A program made the position numbers and the translations under genes. The notes below the pieces were generated by a model, which was not told where the DNA came from, did no database searches, and was given only the letters and a program-made list of their open reading frames with translations. Below, piece after piece: positions 1 through 6,810 of a stretch of DNA of 64,000 bases. Source of the DNA: Enterobacteria phage phiC600P9; the sequence record MZ681930.1; one strand, written 5' to 3'. Every line of letters begins with the position of its first letter. Position 1 is the first letter of the stretch.

Positions 1-162
1 GTTTGCGATACAACAAATAACACTCCGTCAGTAATTGATAGAAATGAGTTTGTTGCAACATTCTACATCCAACCGGCGCGCAGTATAAATTATATTACTT
101 TGAATTTCGTCGCAACTGCTACTGGTGCAGATTTCGATGAGTTAACTGGTCTTGCAGGTTAA
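1..162 (+). CDS. 18: Tail sheath protein gp18, C-terminal fragment (5' end lies outside the window)
   Basis: Frame 1 reads ...FVATATGADFDELTGLAG* with stop at 160-162, matching the T4 gp18 C-terminus as recalled; followed by a hairpin. Confidence 0.8.
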   Translation, partial: VCDTTNNTPSVIDRNEFVATFYIQPARSINYITLNFVATATGADFDELTGLAG

Positions 163-167
163 TTGAT

Positions 168-190
168 AAGGGGCTTCGGCCCCTGTTCTC
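168..190 (+). terminator. GC hairpin with UUCG loop (ggggc-ttcg-gcccc) downstream of gene 18
   Basis: Perfect 5-bp GC stem with tetraloop seen at 170-183; the T-tract is weak, so it may be an RNA stability or processing hairpin rather than a strong terminator. Confidence 0.5.
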
Positions 191-200
191 GAGGAATCAA

Positions 201-818
201 GTGATTATTTCTAAATTCATTAAAGTAAAAATTGTACCGTCAAATTTTAAACATTATCAGTCAAAGGGATATAAATTAACACCTCTTGGAGCGGTTAAAC
301 ACGGATTTAAGTATTATGAAATTGATGTTAAAGTTGAAGACATTAAAGGTAGTACCGCGTATGTAAAATGTCGTTGCGATAAATGTGGAATTGAATATAA
401 CCAACGCATTGGAAGAAACACTGATATTTGTTGTGATTGTCGTCATAAAGATAAAATGCATAATAATTCATATGGTTCAGCGAATAAAGGAAAAACCGTA
501 GAATGTATGCATGGCGTAAATCATCCAAGATGGAACCCAAATAAATCTGAAATGCGTGAATATATTTCATCGGTATATAGAGAAACTCGTAAGCATAGGA
601 AAATTTGGTCAAAATGGCCGAATGCTGATAAGATAGGAGTGTGTGGTACAGAAGGTGCTTACCAACTTGATCATAAGGTATCTATCAAATACGGTTTTGA
701 TAATTTAATTCCTGCTAAAATAATTGGCGGTATTAATAATTTAGAAATAATCACTTGGGAATCTAACCGAGAAAAGTCAAAAAGAAATAGTGTAGATCTT
801 TGGGATTTGCTAGAATGA
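201..818 (+). CDS. HNH-family (Mob-like) homing endonuclease, GTG start
   Basis: 205-aa ORF with Cys-rich stretch (CRCDKCG...CCDCRH) and an HNH-like core (YQLDHKVSIKYGF...NNLEIITWESNREKSKRN); GAGGA Shine-Dalgarno 5 nt upstream of GTG. Family assignment is from motif reading only. Confidence 0.6.
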   Translation: MIISKFIKVKIVPSNFKHYQSKGYKLTPLGAVKHGFKYYEIDVKVEDIKGSTAYVKCRCDKCGIEYNQRIGRNTDICCDCRHKDKMHNNSYGSANKGKTVECMHGVNHPRWNPNKSEMREYISSVYRETRKHRKIWSKWPNADKIGVCGTEGAYQLDHKVSIKYGFDNLIPAKIIGGINNLEIITWESNREKSKRNSVDLWDLLE

Positions 819-903
819 TTCTAAAGGCCTGTTTCGGCAGGCCATATAAATACACTATATCCTTAATTCTTTAATTCTATATGCCCTAGGTTAAACATAG
901 GGA

Positions 904-911
904 TATAAATA
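904..911 (+). promoter_or_regulatory. T4-type late promoter TATAAATA upstream of gene 19 (a second copy at 845-852)
   Basis: Exact TATAAATA about 15 nt upstream of the gene 19 ATG; the late promoter consensus is established T4 knowledge. Confidence 0.6.
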
Positions 912-925
912 CTACAGAGGCTAAT

Positions 926-1417
926 ATGTTTGTAGATGATGTAACACGAGCGTTTGAATCTGGTGATTTTGCTCGACCTAACTTATTCCAAGTAGAAATT
1001 TCTTATCTTGGACAAAATTTTACATTTCAATGTAAAGCCACTGCTTTACCAGCTGGTATTGTAGAAAAAATTCCAGTCGGATTTATGAACCGTAAAATTA
1101 ACGTAGCAGGCGATCGTACATTCGATGACTGGACTATTACAGTAATGAATGATGAGGCACATGATGCTCGCCAGAAGTTTGTTGATTGGCAAAGCATTGC
1201 TGCTGGGCAAGGGAACGAAATTACTGGTGGAAAACCAGCAGAGTATAAAAAGAGCGCTGTTGTTCGCCAATATGCTCGTGACGCTAAAACTGTAACAAAA
1301 GAAGTCGAAATTAAAGGCCTGTGGCCTACCAACGTGGGTGAACTTCAATTAGATTGGGATTCAAACAATGAAATCCAAACCTTTGAAGTAACTCTCGCTC
1401 TCGATTATTGGGAATAA
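926..1417 (+). CDS. 19: Tail tube protein gp19
   Basis: 163-aa ORF, same length as T4 gp19, immediately after gene 18 as in T4-like gene order. Confidence 0.9.
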   Translation: MFVDDVTRAFESGDFARPNLFQVEISYLGQNFTFQCKATALPAGIVEKIPVGFMNRKINVAGDRTFDDWTITVMNDEAHDARQKFVDWQSIAAGQGNEITGGKPAEYKKSAVVRQYARDAKTVTKEVEIKGLWPTNVGELQLDWDSNNEIQTFEVTLALDYWE

Positions 1418-1449
1418 AATGAATGGGGAGAAATCCCCATCCTGCTTAA

Positions 1450-3074
<1,625 letters not shown>

Positions 3075-3075
<1 letters not shown>

Positions 3076-3323
3076 TGGAAGGTTTAATTGAAGCTATTAA
3101 ATCAAACGACCTCGTAGCCGCTCGTAAATTATTTGCTGAAGCCATGGCTGCAAGAACGATTGATTTAATTAAAGAAGAAAAAATCGCTATCGCTCGTAAT
3201 TTCTTAATCGAAGGTGAAGAACCTGAAGACGAGGATGATGACGAAGACGAAGATAGTGATGATAAAGACGACAAAAAAGACAAAGACTCTGACGAAGATG
3301 ACGAAGACGAGGATGATGAATAA
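3075..3323 (+). CDS. 67: Prohead core protein gp67
   Basis: 82-aa ORF with a highly acidic C-terminal tract ([13 protein letters not shown]...); start overlaps the gene 20 stop (TAATG). Confidence 0.88.
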
Positions 3324-3748
3324 TGCTTCTGATCCCTGAAACTCATGAATTAGTTCTCGAGAATGTCGAAGCACTTATTCCTGAAGCACAGGGTCGCTTT
3401 GACGAATTGTCTTCTGCTTTAAATAAAGACGATATAAATACAATTGTCGAGAATATGCTTGATGATGAAACTGATTTAGCAGTTGCATTAGCTTCTATTA
3501 ATGAAAATATGCCGTTAAATGAATTCATTGTTAAGCACGTTTCAGCTCGTGGTGAAATTACACGTACTAAAGACCGCAAAACACGCGAACGTAATGCATT
3601 TCAAACCACTGGGCTGTCTAAAGCAAAACGTAGACAAATTGCTCGCAAAGCTACCAAAACGAAGATTGCCAATCCAGCAGGTCAATCTCGTGCTCAGCGT
3701 AAGCGTAAAAAAGCTCTTAAACGCCGTAAAGCATTAGGATTAAGCTAA
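3323..3748 (+). CDS. 68: Prohead core protein gp68
   Basis: 141-aa ORF with basic C-terminus, position between 67 and 21 as in T4. Confidence 0.85.
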
Positions 3749-4386
3749 TGAATGAACCCCAATTACTAATTGAAACTTGGGGTCAACCTGGCGAAATTAT
3801 TGATGGTGTGCCAATGCTTGAATCCCACGATGGAAAAGACTTAGGTTTAAAACCGGGTCTATACATCGAAGGAATATTCATGCAAGCAGAAGTCGTCAAT
3901 AGAAATAAACGTCTTTATCCAAAACGCATATTAGAAAAAGCGGTAAAAGACTATATTAATGAGCAAGTTTTAACTAAACAAGCTCTCGGAGAATTAAATC
4001 ATCCTCCACGCGCTAATGTTGACCCGATGCAAGCCGCTATCATTATAGAAGATATGTGGTGGAAAGGAAATGACGTATACGGACGAGCTCGTGTTATTGA
4101 AGGTGACCACGGTCCTGGAGATAAATTAGCAGCTAATATTCGTGCCGGATGGATTCCAGGAGTTTCTTCTCGTGGATTAGGTTCATTGACTGACACAAAT
4201 AAAGGTTATCGTATCGTAAACGAAGGATTCAAATTAACTGTAGGTGTTGATGCAGTATGGGGTCCAAGTGCTCCAGATGCATGGGTAACTCCTAAGGAAA
4301 TTACCGAATCACAGACGGCGGAAGCCGATACAAGTGCCGATGACGCCTATATGGCTCTCGCAGAGGCCATGAAAAAAGCGTTATAA
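3748..4386 (+). CDS. 21: Prohead core scaffold protein and protease gp21
   Basis: 212-aa ORF, same length and position as T4 gp21. Confidence 0.9.
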   Translation: MNEPQLLIETWGQPGEIIDGVPMLESHDGKDLGLKPGLYIEGIFMQAEVVNRNKRLYPKRILEKAVKDYINEQVLTKQALGELNHPPRANVDPMQAAIIIEDMWWKGNDVYGRARVIEGDHGPGDKLAANIRAGWIPGVSSRGLGSLTDTNKGYRIVNEGFKLTVGVDAVWGPSAPDAWVTPKEITESQTAEADTSADDAYMALAEAMKKAL

Positions 4387-4389
4387 ATA
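4382..4389 (+). promoter_or_regulatory. Late promoter TATAAATA upstream of gene 22
   Basis: Exact TATAAATA overlapping the gene 21 stop region, about 28 nt upstream of the gene 22 ATG. Confidence 0.55.
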
Positions 4390-4416
4390 TTATTATCTAA
4401 ACAACAGGACTACAAA

Positions 4417-5226
4417 ATGCTTAAAGAACAACTGATTGCTGAAGCGCAAAAAATTGATGCTTCCGTTGCTCTTGATAGTATTTTCGAATCAGTTAATATT
4501 TCTCCGGAAGCAAAAGAAACTTTCGGCACTGTATTCGAAGCTACCGTCAAGCAGCACGCCGTTAAATTAGCTGAATCTCATATCGCTAAAATTGCTGAAA
4601 AAGCAGAAGAAGAAGTAGAAAAAAATAAAGAAGAAGCCGAAGAAAAAGCTGAGAAGAAAATCGCTGAGCAAGCTTCTAAATTCATCGACCATCTTGCGAA
4701 AGAATGGCTCGCCGAAAATAAATTAGCAGTTGATAAAGGCATCAAAGCCGAACTGTTTGAATCCATGCTTGGTGGATTAAAAGAGCTCTTTGTTGAACAC
4801 AACGTTGTTGTTCCAGAAGAATCAGTTGATGTTGTGGCTGAAATGGAAGAAGAGCTGCAAGAACATAAAGAAGAATCAGCTCGTCTGTTCGAAGAACTCA
4901 ATATGCGCGACGCATATATCAATTATGTGCAGCGTGAAGTGGCATTGAGCGAAAGTACTAAAGATCTGACTGAGTCTCAAAAAGAAAAAGTCTCTGCTCT
5001 GGTCGAAGGTATGGATTATTCAGATGCATTCTCAAGTAAATTGAGCGCAATCGTAGAAATGGTGAAGAAATCTAATAAAGATGAAAGCACTATTACTGAG
5101 GGTATAAATACTCCTGATACTGAAGCAGCCGGACTGAATTTCGTCACTGAAGCTGTAGAAGATAAAGCTGCACAGGGTGCAGAAGATATTGTAAGTGTAT
5201 ATGCGAAAGTCGCATCTCGTTTCTAA
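4417..5226 (+). CDS. 22: Prohead core scaffolding protein gp22
   Basis: 269-aa ORF, acidic and coiled-coil rich (EEEVEKNKEEAEEKAEKK), same length as T4 gp22. Confidence 0.9.
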   Translation: MLKEQLIAEAQKIDASVALDSIFESVNISPEAKETFGTVFEATVKQHAVKLAESHIAKIAEKAEEEVEKNKEEAEEKAEKKIAEQASKFIDHLAKEWLAENKLAVDKGIKAELFESMLGGLKELFVEHNVVVPEESVDVVAEMEEELQEHKEESARLFEELNMRDAYINYVQREVALSESTKDLTESQKEKVSALVEGMDYSDAFSSKLSAIVEMVKKSNKDESTITEGINTPDTEAAGLNFVTEAVEDKAAQGAEDIVSVYAKVASRF

Positions 5227-5244
5227 TTTTAAAGGTTAACACAA

Positions 5245-6810
5245 ATGACTATCAAAACTAAAGCTGAACTTTTGAACAAATGGAAGCCATTACTGGAAGG
5301 TGAAGGTTTACCGGAAATTGCTAATAGCAAACAAGCGATTATCGCTAAAATCTTTGAAAACCAGGAAAAAGATTTCCAGACAGCTCCGGAATATAAAGAC
5401 GAAAAAATTGCTCAGGCATTCGGTTCTTTCTTAACAGAAGCTGAAATCGGTGGTGACCACGGTTACAATGCTACCAACATCGCTGCAGGTCAGACTTCTG
5501 GCGCAGTAACTCAGATTGGCCCAGCTGTTATGGGTATGGTACGTCGTGCTATTCCTAACCTGATTGCTTTCGATATTTGTGGTGTTCAGCCGATGAACAG
5601 CCCGACCGGTCAGGTATTCGCACTGCGCGCAGTATATGGTAAAGACCCAATTGCTTCCGGTGCTAAAGAAGCATTCCACCCAATGTATGGTCCAGATGCA
5701 ATGTTCTCTGGTCAGGGTGCTGCTAAGAAATTCACAGCTCTGGCTGCTAGCACACAAACCGTTGTAGGTGATATCTATACTCACTTCTTCCAGGAAACTG
5801 GTACTGTGTATCTGCAAGCTTCCGCTGTAGTAACAATTAGTTCAAGCGCAACTGATGCAGATAAATTAGATGCTGAAATTAAGAAACAAATGGAAGCTGG
5901 TGCACTGGTAGAAATCGCTGAAGGTATGGCTACTTCTATCGCTGAACTCCAGGAAGGTTTCAACGGTTCTACCGATAACCCATGGAATGAAATGGGCTTC
6001 CGTATCGATAAACAAGTTATCGAAGCTAAATCTCGCCAGCTGAAAGCTGCTTACTCTATTGAATTAGCACAAGACCTCCGCGCTGTTCACGGTATGGATG
6101 CTGATGCTGAACTGTCTGGTATTCTGGCTACAGAAATCATGCTGGAAATCAACCGTGAAGTTGTTGATTGGATTAACTACTCAGCTCAGGTTGGTAAATC
6201 TGGTATGACCCTGACTCCAGGTTCTAAAGCTGGTGTATTTGACTTCCAGGATCCGATTGATATTCGTGGTGCTCGCTGGGCGGGTGAATCCTTTAAAGCT
6301 CTGTTGTTCCAGATTGACAAAGAAGCAGTTGAAATTGCTCGTCAGACTGGTCGTGGTGAAGGTAACTTCATTATCGCTTCCCGTAACGTAGTTAACGTTC
6401 TGGCTTCAGTTGATACCGGCATTTCTTATGCTGCACAAGGTCTGGCTACCGGCTTTAACACTGATACTACCAAGTCAGTATTTGCTGGCGTTCTGGGTGG
6501 TAAATACCGTGTATATATCGACCAGTATGCTAAACAGGATTATTTCACTGTAGGTTATAAAGGTCCGAACGAAATGGATGCTGGTATTTACTACGCTCCA
6601 TATGTAGCTCTGACTCCGCTGCGTGGTTCCGATCCGAAGAACTTCCAACCAGTAATGGGATTCAAAACTCGTTACGGTATCGGTATCAACCCATTTGCAG
6701 AATCCGCTGCTCAGGCTCCGGCTTCTCGCATCCAGAGCGGTATGCCTTCTATTCTGAATAGCCTTGGTAAAAACGCTTACTTCCGCCGTGTATATGTTAA
6801 AGGTATCTAA
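5245..6810 (+). CDS. 23: Major capsid protein gp23
   Basis: 521-aa ORF beginning MTIKTKAELLNKWKPLLEGEGLPEIANSKQAIIAKIFENQ, recognised as the T4 gp23 sequence. Confidence 0.97.
   Translation: MTIKTKAELLNKWKPLLEGEGLPEIANSKQAIIAKIFENQEKDFQTAPEYKDEKIAQAFGSFLTEAEIGGDHGYNATNIAAGQTSGAVTQIGPAVMGMVRRAIPNLIAFDICGVQPMNSPTGQVFALRAVYGKDPIASGAKEAFHPMYGPDAMFSGQGAAKKFTALAASTQTVVGDIYTHFFQETGTVYLQASAVVTISSSATDADKLDAEIKKQMEAGALVEIAEGMATSIAELQEGFNGSTDNPWNEMGFRIDKQVIEAKSRQLKAAYSIELAQDLRAVHGMDADAELSGILATEIMLEINREVVDWINYSAQVGKSGMTLTPGSKAGVFDFQDPIDIRGARWAGESFKALLFQIDKEAVEIARQTGRGEGNFIIASRNVVNVLASVDTGISYAAQGLATGFNTDTTKSVFAGVLGGKYRVYIDQYAKQDYFTVGYKGPNEMDAGIYYAPYVALTPLRGSDPKNFQPVMGFKTRYGIGINPFAESAAQAPASRIQSGMPSILNSLGKNAYFRRVYVKGI

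Follow-up and report, generated by a model that had tools for sequence, protein, structure and literature searches.

Between tail sheath gene 18 and tail tube gene 19 of Enterobacteria phage phiC600P9 lies a 205-amino-acid open reading frame (ORF; positions 201-818 of the 64,000-nucleotide stretch of record MZ681930.1 analysed here, hereafter the window) that, with a probability of roughly 0.8, represents a free-standing homing endonuclease gene (HEG) encoding a two-module protein. A first-pass annotation made from the letters of the window had proposed the same core reading, and comparison with related phages now supports it through an insertion polymorphism, fidelity to one site, discordance between the ORF and its flanking genes, and a conserved motif of nuclease type. 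Among the known causes of localized marker exclusion and of mosaic boundaries in T-even genomes, free-standing homing endonucleases rank first, and the block of structural genes that houses this ORF is the most conserved one and supposedly resists transfer. While a HEG in a T-even phage is unsurprising to the specialist, the family is a large and uncharacterized one, of an ordinary kind and unusually faithful to its site.

Insertion between the tail sheath and tail tube genes

The adjacency of genes 18 and 19 in T4, which the first-pass annotation had given, was confirmed, with just 9 bp (TACGGTGCA) between them at the position in question, and the ORF with a GTG start that it had placed between the two genes was found on the plus strand, as are all features of the locus described below. 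In an alignment with T4 and six contigs with an empty site, approximately 656 bp of the window (~163-818) stand in place of these 9 bp, the T4 interval reading TAA-TACGGTGCA-TTCTAAAGGCC... (or TAA-TACGGTGCA-TTCTAAAGGCCTGTTTCGGCAGGCCATATAAATA...). The insert of phage T6 has the same boundaries as that of phiC600P9. Neither a target-site duplication nor terminal inverted repeats were seen at the insertion on inspection by eye.

The inserted cassette (163-818) consists of a stable UUCG-loop hairpin (169-184; GGGGCTTCGGCCCC at 170-183), a ribosome-binding site (RBS) and the ORF, in this order, the signals for translation (191-203) comprising the Shine-Dalgarno sequence GAGG (191-194) and the GTG start codon (201-203). 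The hairpin, which has no counterpart in T4 and arrives with the insert, had been taken for that of gene 18. The native post-gene-18 hairpin, present in T4, is the one at 826-843 (minimum free energy (MFE) -14.1, z -3.3), which now lies 3' of the insert. In a similar way, the two late promoters noticed downstream were indeed located, at 845-852 and 904-911 (TATAAATA in both cases), but they are native promoters of gene 19, identical in T4 and all empty-site contigs, and lie outside the element. The G+C content of the cassette is 32%, compared to 39-40% in genes 18 and 19, which fits an accessory or foreign gene. On either side, the 3' end of gene 18 occupies 1-162 (stop codon TAA at 160-162, translation ending in ...DFDELTGLAG*; annotated as tail sheath in record MT630408) and gene 19 occupies 926-1417, with gene 20 next.

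A string of the form ATT(ATT)TCTAAA occurs twice, inside the start of the ORF (206-215) and at the right insertion boundary (817-826). The repetition may be due to chance, and the empty sites observed do not match a deletion between the two copies.

Coding status and annotation of the open reading frame

The ORF is a member of PHROG 5104 (E-value 1e-90), a family annotated as 'unknown function'. More than 150 clusters of homologues were obtained at 90% identity, none of which has a Pfam domain and nearly all of which are named hypothetical, and an exhaustive HMMER search with the family profile retrieved 6,477 clusters at the 50% identity level with E≤1e-3, including 115 with E≤1e-30. Among six close copies, all intact, the ratio of nonsynonymous to synonymous substitution rates (dN/dS) is 0.03-0.15; by this measure the ORF is under purifying selection. 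The homologues and the dN/dS values together show that it is not a chance open frame. The GTG start is supported because it is the sole in-frame start available (the upstream in-frame stretch has no start codon), because the N-terminus that it gives, V-I-I-S-K, resembles the M-I-I-x-K of homologues with an ATG start, and because GAGG is present at 191-194. In addition, the GTG start is kept in T6, S16 and Roth21. No second copy of the ORF was found in the window.

Public annotation of the family is inconsistent. The phiC600P9 (Tequatrovirus) record MT630408, with which the window shares 100% identity, names the ORF 'hypothetical protein, gp19.1'; the term 'homing endonuclease' was assigned automatically to a homologue in a few records (including H55 and H61); the T6 copy is a 'putative head morphogenesis protein', the ZCEC14 and SYGD1 copies are 'holin' and the Roth21 and Roth67 copies 'type II restriction endonuclease'; and in the records of RB5-RB10 the ORF is unannotated. 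For Salmonella phage S16 (NC_020416), the record gives only a 106-amino-acid 'gp100.1', whereas a GTG-start homologue of 206 amino acids is intact at 1601-2221 of that locus. The S16 copy is accordingly not a decayed 106-amino-acid remnant, the annotation being merely truncated. No publications on the gene of the 18/19 interval, on 'gp19.1' or on the T6 copy were found in the literature.

Distribution, site fidelity and probable mobility

The phiC600P9 allele is carried by 47 records. An insert of any kind in the 18/19 interval was present in 8 of 44 evenly spaced Tequatrovirus records (~18%), T4 itself being empty, and ten contigs with a gp19 protein identical to that of the window divide into six with an empty and four with an occupied site. 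In a distant aquatic T4-like clade, sampled via its own gp19, a single locus out of 74 was occupied, while in the other 73 gp18 and gp19 are just 27-46 nt apart. The interval comparison suggested in the first-pass annotation thus shows that presence of the ORF in this interval is not a general feature of T4-like phages, as T4, most Tequatrovirus phages and nearly the whole aquatic sample lack it. Presence and absence alternate at one precise site among close relatives, which is what a HEG should display.

When present, full-length relatives almost always lie directly after the sheath gene. A homologue occupies this position in approximately 45 of 80 IMG/VR loci, as well as in T6, S16, Klebsiella phage Roth21 and Sinorhizobium phage phiM7, and the position is held even where the C-terminus of gp18 is only ~45% and gp19 30-35% identical to those of the window. 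Of the 235 phage records that matched the ORF in a tblastn search, all except one gave a single location, and the locations examined were in every case the 18/19 interval.

The relationships of the ORF are discordant with those of the flanking genes, as expected of horizontal spread, both in pairwise identities and in the exchange of a domain. The flanks of two contigs (L005 and L017) are 98-100% identical and their ORFs 44%; for phiC600P9 and T6 the corresponding values are 99% and 57%. Across pairwise identities, the Spearman correlation of the ORF with its flanks is 0.30-0.38, compared to 0.66 between one flank and the other. T6 and many other Tequatrovirus phages have a second allele at identical boundaries and with the same hairpin. 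Between the T6 and phiC600P9 alleles, the first six and the last ~75 residues are ~93% identical and residues 7-130 only ~25%, and the predicted reader module (the N-terminal half) therefore appears to be exchanged between the two. The nuclease domain also occurs alone, and with other N-termini, in other contexts. A gene that is sporadic, site-faithful, phylogenetically discordant and modular has the signature of a site-specific selfish nuclease gene.

Several further observations concern the same block of genes. Two metagenomic contigs of one phage type (L067 and L068) have three to four copies of the C-terminal nuclease domain within 8 kb round gp18/gp20 (~860-5930). In a 168-kb phage (L006, IMGVR_UViG_2974656882), the homologue at 4001-5080 is in the frame of gp19 without a stop codon, the open frame extending over 361 codons through gp19, and in Acj61 (L007) the homologue overlaps gp19 by 32 nt; these two arrangements could be a real overlap or fusion, or sequencing artefacts. 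In S16 (L193), an 'intron-like DNA endonuclease', gp104.1, lies at 5211-5816 between homologues of gp68 and gp21, at a position where the genes of the window abut (3748), which makes it a further endonuclease site of the presence/absence type in this conserved block. The gp67 homologue (window 3075-3323) has 77, 79, 80, 81, 82 or 85 residues among contigs with identical gp19 protein, its acidic repeat tail differing in length between near-identical phages. Finally, 'Staphylococcus phage SAJK-IND' (MG010123, 32 kb) has a T4-like region with 97% identity to a query of window positions 1-1500, and two 'Pseudomonas phage' records (vB_PSGBLB0006 and PsgM02F) carry the T6-type sheath haplotype; all three are probably host mis-assignments or contaminated assemblies.

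Domain organization of the predicted protein

The N-terminal half of the protein (residues 1-~130, 201-590) is predicted to be a DNA-binding module. The Cys-rich, zinc-finger-like segment seen at first pass corresponds to a CxxC...CxxC zinc ribbon within it (C59-x2-C62...C77-x2-C80, 375-440), with C59, C62 and C77 invariant in an alignment of 42 homologues. A DUF4379 treble-clef zinc finger (PF14311) was detected in 11 of these 42 and in 8 of 135 relatives (best E-value 7.3e-6), the window protein itself being unmatched, and the family profile matched mS66 among PDB sequences through the zinc-finger half (E-value 0.003). Moreover, NUMOD3 is present in three relatives, and longer relatives have an N-terminal part in common with PHROGs annotated 'homing endonuclease'. 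A linker motif, G-x-N-H-P-R-W-N-P-N-K (residues 105-115, 513-545), is also conserved in the alignment.

The C-terminal part (591-818) is a predicted nuclease domain with a strand-strand-helix core at residues 154-192 (660-776). Its catalytic-type residues, D157/H158 (669-674), N180 (738-740) and N189 (765-767), show no variation in sets of 42 and 37 sequences and at least 90% conservation in a set of 135, and they follow the HNH-type pattern, in which a catalytic His after Asp/His is combined with an Asn of structural role and a distal Asn/His for metal binding. In the AlphaFold model (mean predicted local distance difference test score (pLDDT) 87.9), D157-H158 stand at the end of a strand (154-158), N180 starts a second strand (181-185) and N189 lies in a helix (186-192), which as modelled is the layout of a beta-beta-alpha-metal (His-Me finger) site.

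An HNH profile search, proposed as a check at first pass, gave a divided answer: the window protein has no direct Pfam match, whereas C-terminal fragments of its relatives match HNH and endonuclease VII (Endo VII) families. This indirect test scanned the C-terminal ~108 residues of 37 diverse members against PHROG and Pfam. The PHROG 'endonuclease VII' was matched by 19 of the 37 fragments (best E-value 2.6e-7) and five PHROGs annotated 'HNH endonuclease' by 9, 3, 2, 2 and 2; the sole other PHROG matched was phrog_23051, of unknown function, so that no other function annotation was recovered. Against Pfam, HNH_4 was found in three fragments (0.01) and HNH in three (0.015), these being the only families matched more than once, and GH-E, which belongs to the HNH/Endo VII superfamily, in one. 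When full relatives were used, HNH_4 was found in 2 of 135 (3.5e-4) and HNH in one. Structural neighbours in BFVD also include proteins annotated as HNH or homing endonuclease. Taken together, the matches of the relatives and the predicted fold lead us to conclude that the protein probably combines a zinc-ribbon DNA-reading module with a divergent nuclease domain of the HNH/Endo VII superfamily.

A trap for automated annotation was also noticed in this domain. The segment IP..IIG.I.NL.II.W..N (residues ~172-190, window 720-770) mimics a leucine-rich-repeat unit and produces spurious matches to leucine-rich-repeat proteins of the PDB with E-values down to 3e-4.

A recoded patch in the tail sheath gene

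Apart from the junction, nearly all sites that separate occupied from empty loci in a 2.6-kb alignment (six empty and seven occupied loci) fall into one cluster inside gene 18 (78-111), with zero variation at -24 to 69, 112-162 and 819-1023. The patch (76-111) covers the codons for A-R-S-I-N-Y-I-T-L-N-F-V and contains 10 synonymous differences from T4-type empty-site phages, which read GCT AGA AGC ATT AAC TAC ATT ACC TTR AAC TTC GTA where occupied loci read GCG CGC AGT ATA AAT TAT ATT ACT TTG AAT TTC GTC. T6 has a related version of the patch with a Thr-to-Gln replacement. In the protein, the motif concerned (ARSINYITLNFV) is near-invariant and is encoded ~50-85 bp upstream of the gene 18 stop, KPARSIN[F/Y]ITLNF being nearly the same across the whole T4 superfamily, while intergenic sequences are unrelated between clades. 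Because of this near-invariance throughout the superfamily, the gp18 motif is a sequence that a homing enzyme could follow between very different phages.

The recoding is linked to occupancy, an enrichment for ATA-AAT and for CAA (Gln) being observed in occupied loci. ATA-AAT for Ile-Asn was found in 12 of 34 unique occupied and 5 of 72 unique empty sequences, and a Gln codon replacing Thr in 15 and 3, respectively; either signature was present in 22 of the 34 and 5 of the 72, all five empties being Tequatrovirus-like (Fisher p 7e-10, without correction for phylogeny). The target site of a homing enzyme should be altered or absent in the HEG-bearing allele, and here the recoded motif is associated with occupancy with exceptions in both directions, while the junction is also disrupted by the insert. 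We consider that the chance of the patch being the target of the nuclease falls just short of even, and it may serve as the immunity site as well. A strict requirement for the recoded motif together with the gene was rejected, given an occupied phage with an unrecoded motif (Shigella phage sb1) and the recoded empty sites. It was also asked whether the type of N-terminal module predicts Thr or Gln at the motif, and no pattern was found.

Expression signals

The cassette is placed on the late strand, 3' of gene 18 and 5' of the promoters of gene 19. The hairpin that it brings has an MFE of -19.4 kcal/mol over 155-230 (z -2.65), the extended stem partly pairing with the RBS region, and analogous hairpins are found 5' of the ORF in other occupied Tevenvirinae-like loci. 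In some relatives (L006, L007, L017 and L018) TATAAATA is located just 5' of the start codon, and in aquatic relatives the start overlaps the gp18 stop (TGATG or TAATG). For T-even homing endonuclease genes, a weak start codon, a hairpin close to the RBS and late expression have all been described (PMC2988022).

The recoding in gene 18 creates TATAAATT at 84-91, which agrees with the T4 late-promoter consensus TATAAATA at 7 of 8 positions, lies ~110 nt 5' of the ORF start and is, by sequence only, a candidate promoter. It is present in A- and B-type occupied Tequatrovirus phages, Roth21 and L113. The idea that the recoding serves mainly to make a late promoter is weakened by the wider survey, in which TATAAAT was found in just 12 of 48 occupied loci overall, most occupied clades having GATAAAT or no such motif.

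Proposed mechanism and alternative explanations

If the ORF represents a free-standing homing endonuclease gene, its N-terminal zinc-ribbon module would read DNA and its C-terminal His-Me-finger (HNH/Endo VII-like) module would cut or nick it, with D157 and N189 holding the metal, H158 acting as general base and N180 having a structural role. In a mixed infection, a phage without the ORF would have its sheath gene cut by the enzyme, the likeliest place being the stretch of gene 18 that encodes ARSINYITLNF, 50-85 bp upstream of the stop codon, and recombinational repair would then copy the end of donor gene 18 and the cassette into the recipient. The conversion tract would carry the recoded motif and, if long enough, the cassette too; G50 and FriedrichMiescher, which have a recoded patch and an empty site, may be products of short-tract repair. 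Synonymous recoding of its own motif would give the donor partial protection. The cassette, bringing its own hairpin and RBS and using a weak GTG start, would ride on late structural transcripts. Marker exclusion by the ORF, which had been anticipated at first pass, would be expected by analogy.

A broader version of this scenario, which we offer tentatively and regard as more doubtful than probable, is that the same 12 codons of the sheath gene (gp18 ...PARSIN[Y/F]ITLNF...) have been followed by one endonuclease family in all parts of the T4 superfamily, in coliphages as in marine and rhizobial myoviruses. The family would always land just after the sheath stop, retarget by swapping its N-terminal module and leave recoding (ATA-AAT, Thr-to-Gln) behind as immunity, and the recoded, uncut copy in coliphages might double as its own late promoter or operator (TATAAATT), echoing the autorepression of I-TevI.

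A number of results weigh against a homing endonuclease that targets the patch. Regarding the nuclease, the window protein stayed unmatched in Pfam up to E≤10. No HNH structure was retrieved among PDB sequences by HMMER profiles, whether built from the whole family or from the C-terminal part, the former matching only zinc fingers and mS66 and the latter only leucine-rich repeats, spuriously, from an IGxIxNLQ string. Foldseek against PDB returned nothing, an hhalign comparison with T4 MobB/C/D put the motifs in register without significance (Prob 0.3%), one with T4 Endo VII (gp49) gave nothing, and no biochemical or genetic data on any family member were found in the literature. As for the patch, neither signature is present in 12 of the 34 unique occupied loci, and the empties in the association test, which ignores phylogeny, come mostly from two clades. 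Shigella phage sb1 combines an intact allele (96% amino acid identity) with an unrecoded T4-type motif, a combination that sb2, sb3 and Ec_YwIITB1 probably share, and approximately 20 empty-site phages carry the recoded motif. Furthermore, linkage over 50-85 bp needs no selection.

A rival reading is a homing endonuclease that targets the empty 18/19 junction, in the manner of intron-encoded enzymes, or a site within gene 19, the patch being a hitch-hiking remnant of a divergent donor or a device for making a late promoter (TATAAATT). Insertion destroys the junction TAA-TACGGTGCA-TTCTAAAGG and would confer automatic immunity, the presence of the ORF beside an unrecoded motif in sb1 would pose no difficulty, and the exact string CCGGCGCGCAGTATAAATTATATTAC in Klebsiella phage Roth21 is what a co-transferred tract should leave. 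In the promoter version, the four relatives with TATAAATA just upstream of their start codons would be natural parallels to the creation of TATAAATT. Nevertheless, the intergenic sequences of different clades are unrelated (those of the aquatic clade measure 27-46 nt) and the position is kept all the same, suggesting a conserved anchor in coding sequence; had the changes simply hitch-hiked, their tract should extend outward from the insert, yet 112-162 is identical in all loci and the changes cluster at 78-111; and a need for a promoter hardly accounts for ATA-AAT or Gln signatures that recur in many clades when TATAAAT itself is restricted to a quarter of the occupied loci (12 of 48). We therefore consider a target at the junction or in gene 19 unlikely.

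Three other explanations were considered. A vertically inherited accessory gene of the tail/head module, beneficial to the phage (as a nuclease against host DNA or competitors, or in anti-defence) and lost many times, would account for a position fixed across the whole T4 superfamily, strong purifying selection and an ORF intact in every copy examined; it is improbable, however, as occupancy of one locus in 74 in one clade and of ~18% in another would need very many independent precise losses, the gene may be present or absent, or its alleles only 44-57% identical, in phages that share the same gp19 and gp18 ends of 99% identity, the N-terminal half is swapped between alleles, and T4 manages without the gene. 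It is more improbable still that the ORF is a decayed or domesticated element encoding a non-cutting zinc-finger DNA-binding protein, such as a regulator of late transcription near gene 19. The lack of a significant direct match to any nuclease profile and the tolerance of an unrecoded motif in sb1 would agree with this, and I-TevI demonstrates that such proteins can double as late-promoter repressors (PMC2988022), but four catalytic-type residues show little or no variation among hundreds of divergent homologues, a conservation that would not outlast loss of catalysis, and the presence of the gene is sporadic. A terminase-associated HNH accessory factor aiding DNA packaging, like HK97 gp74 or the HNH protein of Geobacillus phage GVE2, can hardly be credited, given that T4-type packaging needs no HNH factor, most close relatives do without the ORF, the ORF follows gene 18 and is not beside terminase, and the protein has an extra sequence-reading zinc-ribbon half that varies between alleles. 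Phages with a naturally empty site already imply that packaging and burst size are normal in the absence of the gene.

Implications

A free-standing homing endonuclease that keeps to one locus across a superfamily, swaps its reader module at a single site and is associated with a recoded sheath motif would provide a good and directly testable system. If active, it would bias the inheritance of the tail sheath/tube region in mixed infections, which is relevant to phage cocktails and engineered T4-like phages. If the domain assignment is true, the family would also offer a compact modular His-Me-finger enzyme (a zinc-ribbon reader plus a nuclease of ~100 amino acids) with natural reader-domain swaps. 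Since the family is large (thousands of clusters at 50% identity), has no Pfam model and is mis-annotated publicly, a correct name alone would be useful.

Comparison with known systems

The best structural matches of the predicted nuclease domain are Gme HNH (4h9d), GVE2 HNH (5h0o) and HK97 gp74. Unlike the phiC600P9 protein, terminase-associated HNH proteins consist of one small domain with CxxC zinc sites; cos cleavage depends on them, and their occurrence is not sporadic. The catalytic motif of the ORF also resembles that of I-HmuI, the HNH nicking endonuclease of SPO1, which according to Shen et al. (2004) reportedly has an Asp-His pair, a structural Asn and a metal-binding Asn (the 'HNN' variant) in a beta-beta-alpha-metal fold with modular DNA-binding units. 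I-HmuI differs in being intron-encoded, with its nuclease domain at the N-terminus and without a zinc ribbon. It was absent among the PDB sequence and Foldseek matches, and one BFVD neighbour has an automatic annotation apparently derived from the title of an HNH endonuclease-DNA crystal structure, possibly that of I-HmuI.

With respect to domain order, the ORF is closer to F-CphI of cyanophage S-PM2, a phage homing endonuclease of the 'DHHRN' type with a C-terminal Endo VII-like catalytic domain (PMC6083498): its own nuclease domain is also C-terminal, and the PHROG 'endonuclease VII' is the commonest cross-match of the family. The DHHRN definition comprises a central DHDH with the H43 equivalent, flanking CX2-4C and CX2C zinc ligands, R54 and N62 (PMC6083498). 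Membership was rejected for the ORF, as its motif, DH[KI][VI]S, lacks the second His and its nuclease domain is devoid of Cys pairs, the zinc ribbon being located in the N-terminal half. Because the protein fails this definition and is not recognized by Pfam HNH models, we file it as a divergent His-Me-finger family that belongs to no named one.

Hef of phage U5 is likewise a T-even free-standing endonuclease without a recognized family motif. Hef is located between nrdA and nrdB and the ORF in the 18/19 interval, and to judge from the tblastn place counts, homology between them looks unlikely. SegH and Hef are said by Sandegren et al. (2005) to cut their own genomes as well as HEG-less ones; on this precedent, the unrecoded motif of sb1 would be unremarkable and not fatal to a target in the patch.

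MobA-E of T4 resemble the phiC600P9 element in being free-standing, promoter-poor cassettes between conserved phage genes, with a sporadic distribution and an H-N-H-type motif, and in the hhalign register mentioned above DH..NL..N of the ORF family falls onto HH..NL..H of MobB/C/D. However, the order of domains is reversed, the HNH domain of Mob proteins being N-terminal and their DNA-binding part C-terminal, the motifs are D-H/N/N and H-H/N/H, respectively, and there is no significant sequence similarity. No Mob gene is located in the 18-19 interval (Table 1 of PMC2988022).

Free-standing T-even endonucleases cut away from their own insertion site (PMC2988022). SegF and SegG exemplify this in the 'intronless homing' and localized marker exclusion of T4 x T2 crosses, where a cut in a conserved neighbour gene, away from the endonuclease gene, is followed by co-conversion of the interval (PMC2988022). 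The Seg enzymes differ from the ORF product in being GIY-YIG proteins, and the likeness lies in the way of spreading that is proposed here by analogy, in which a cut in the tail sheath gene would draw the neighbouring cassette into phages that lack it.

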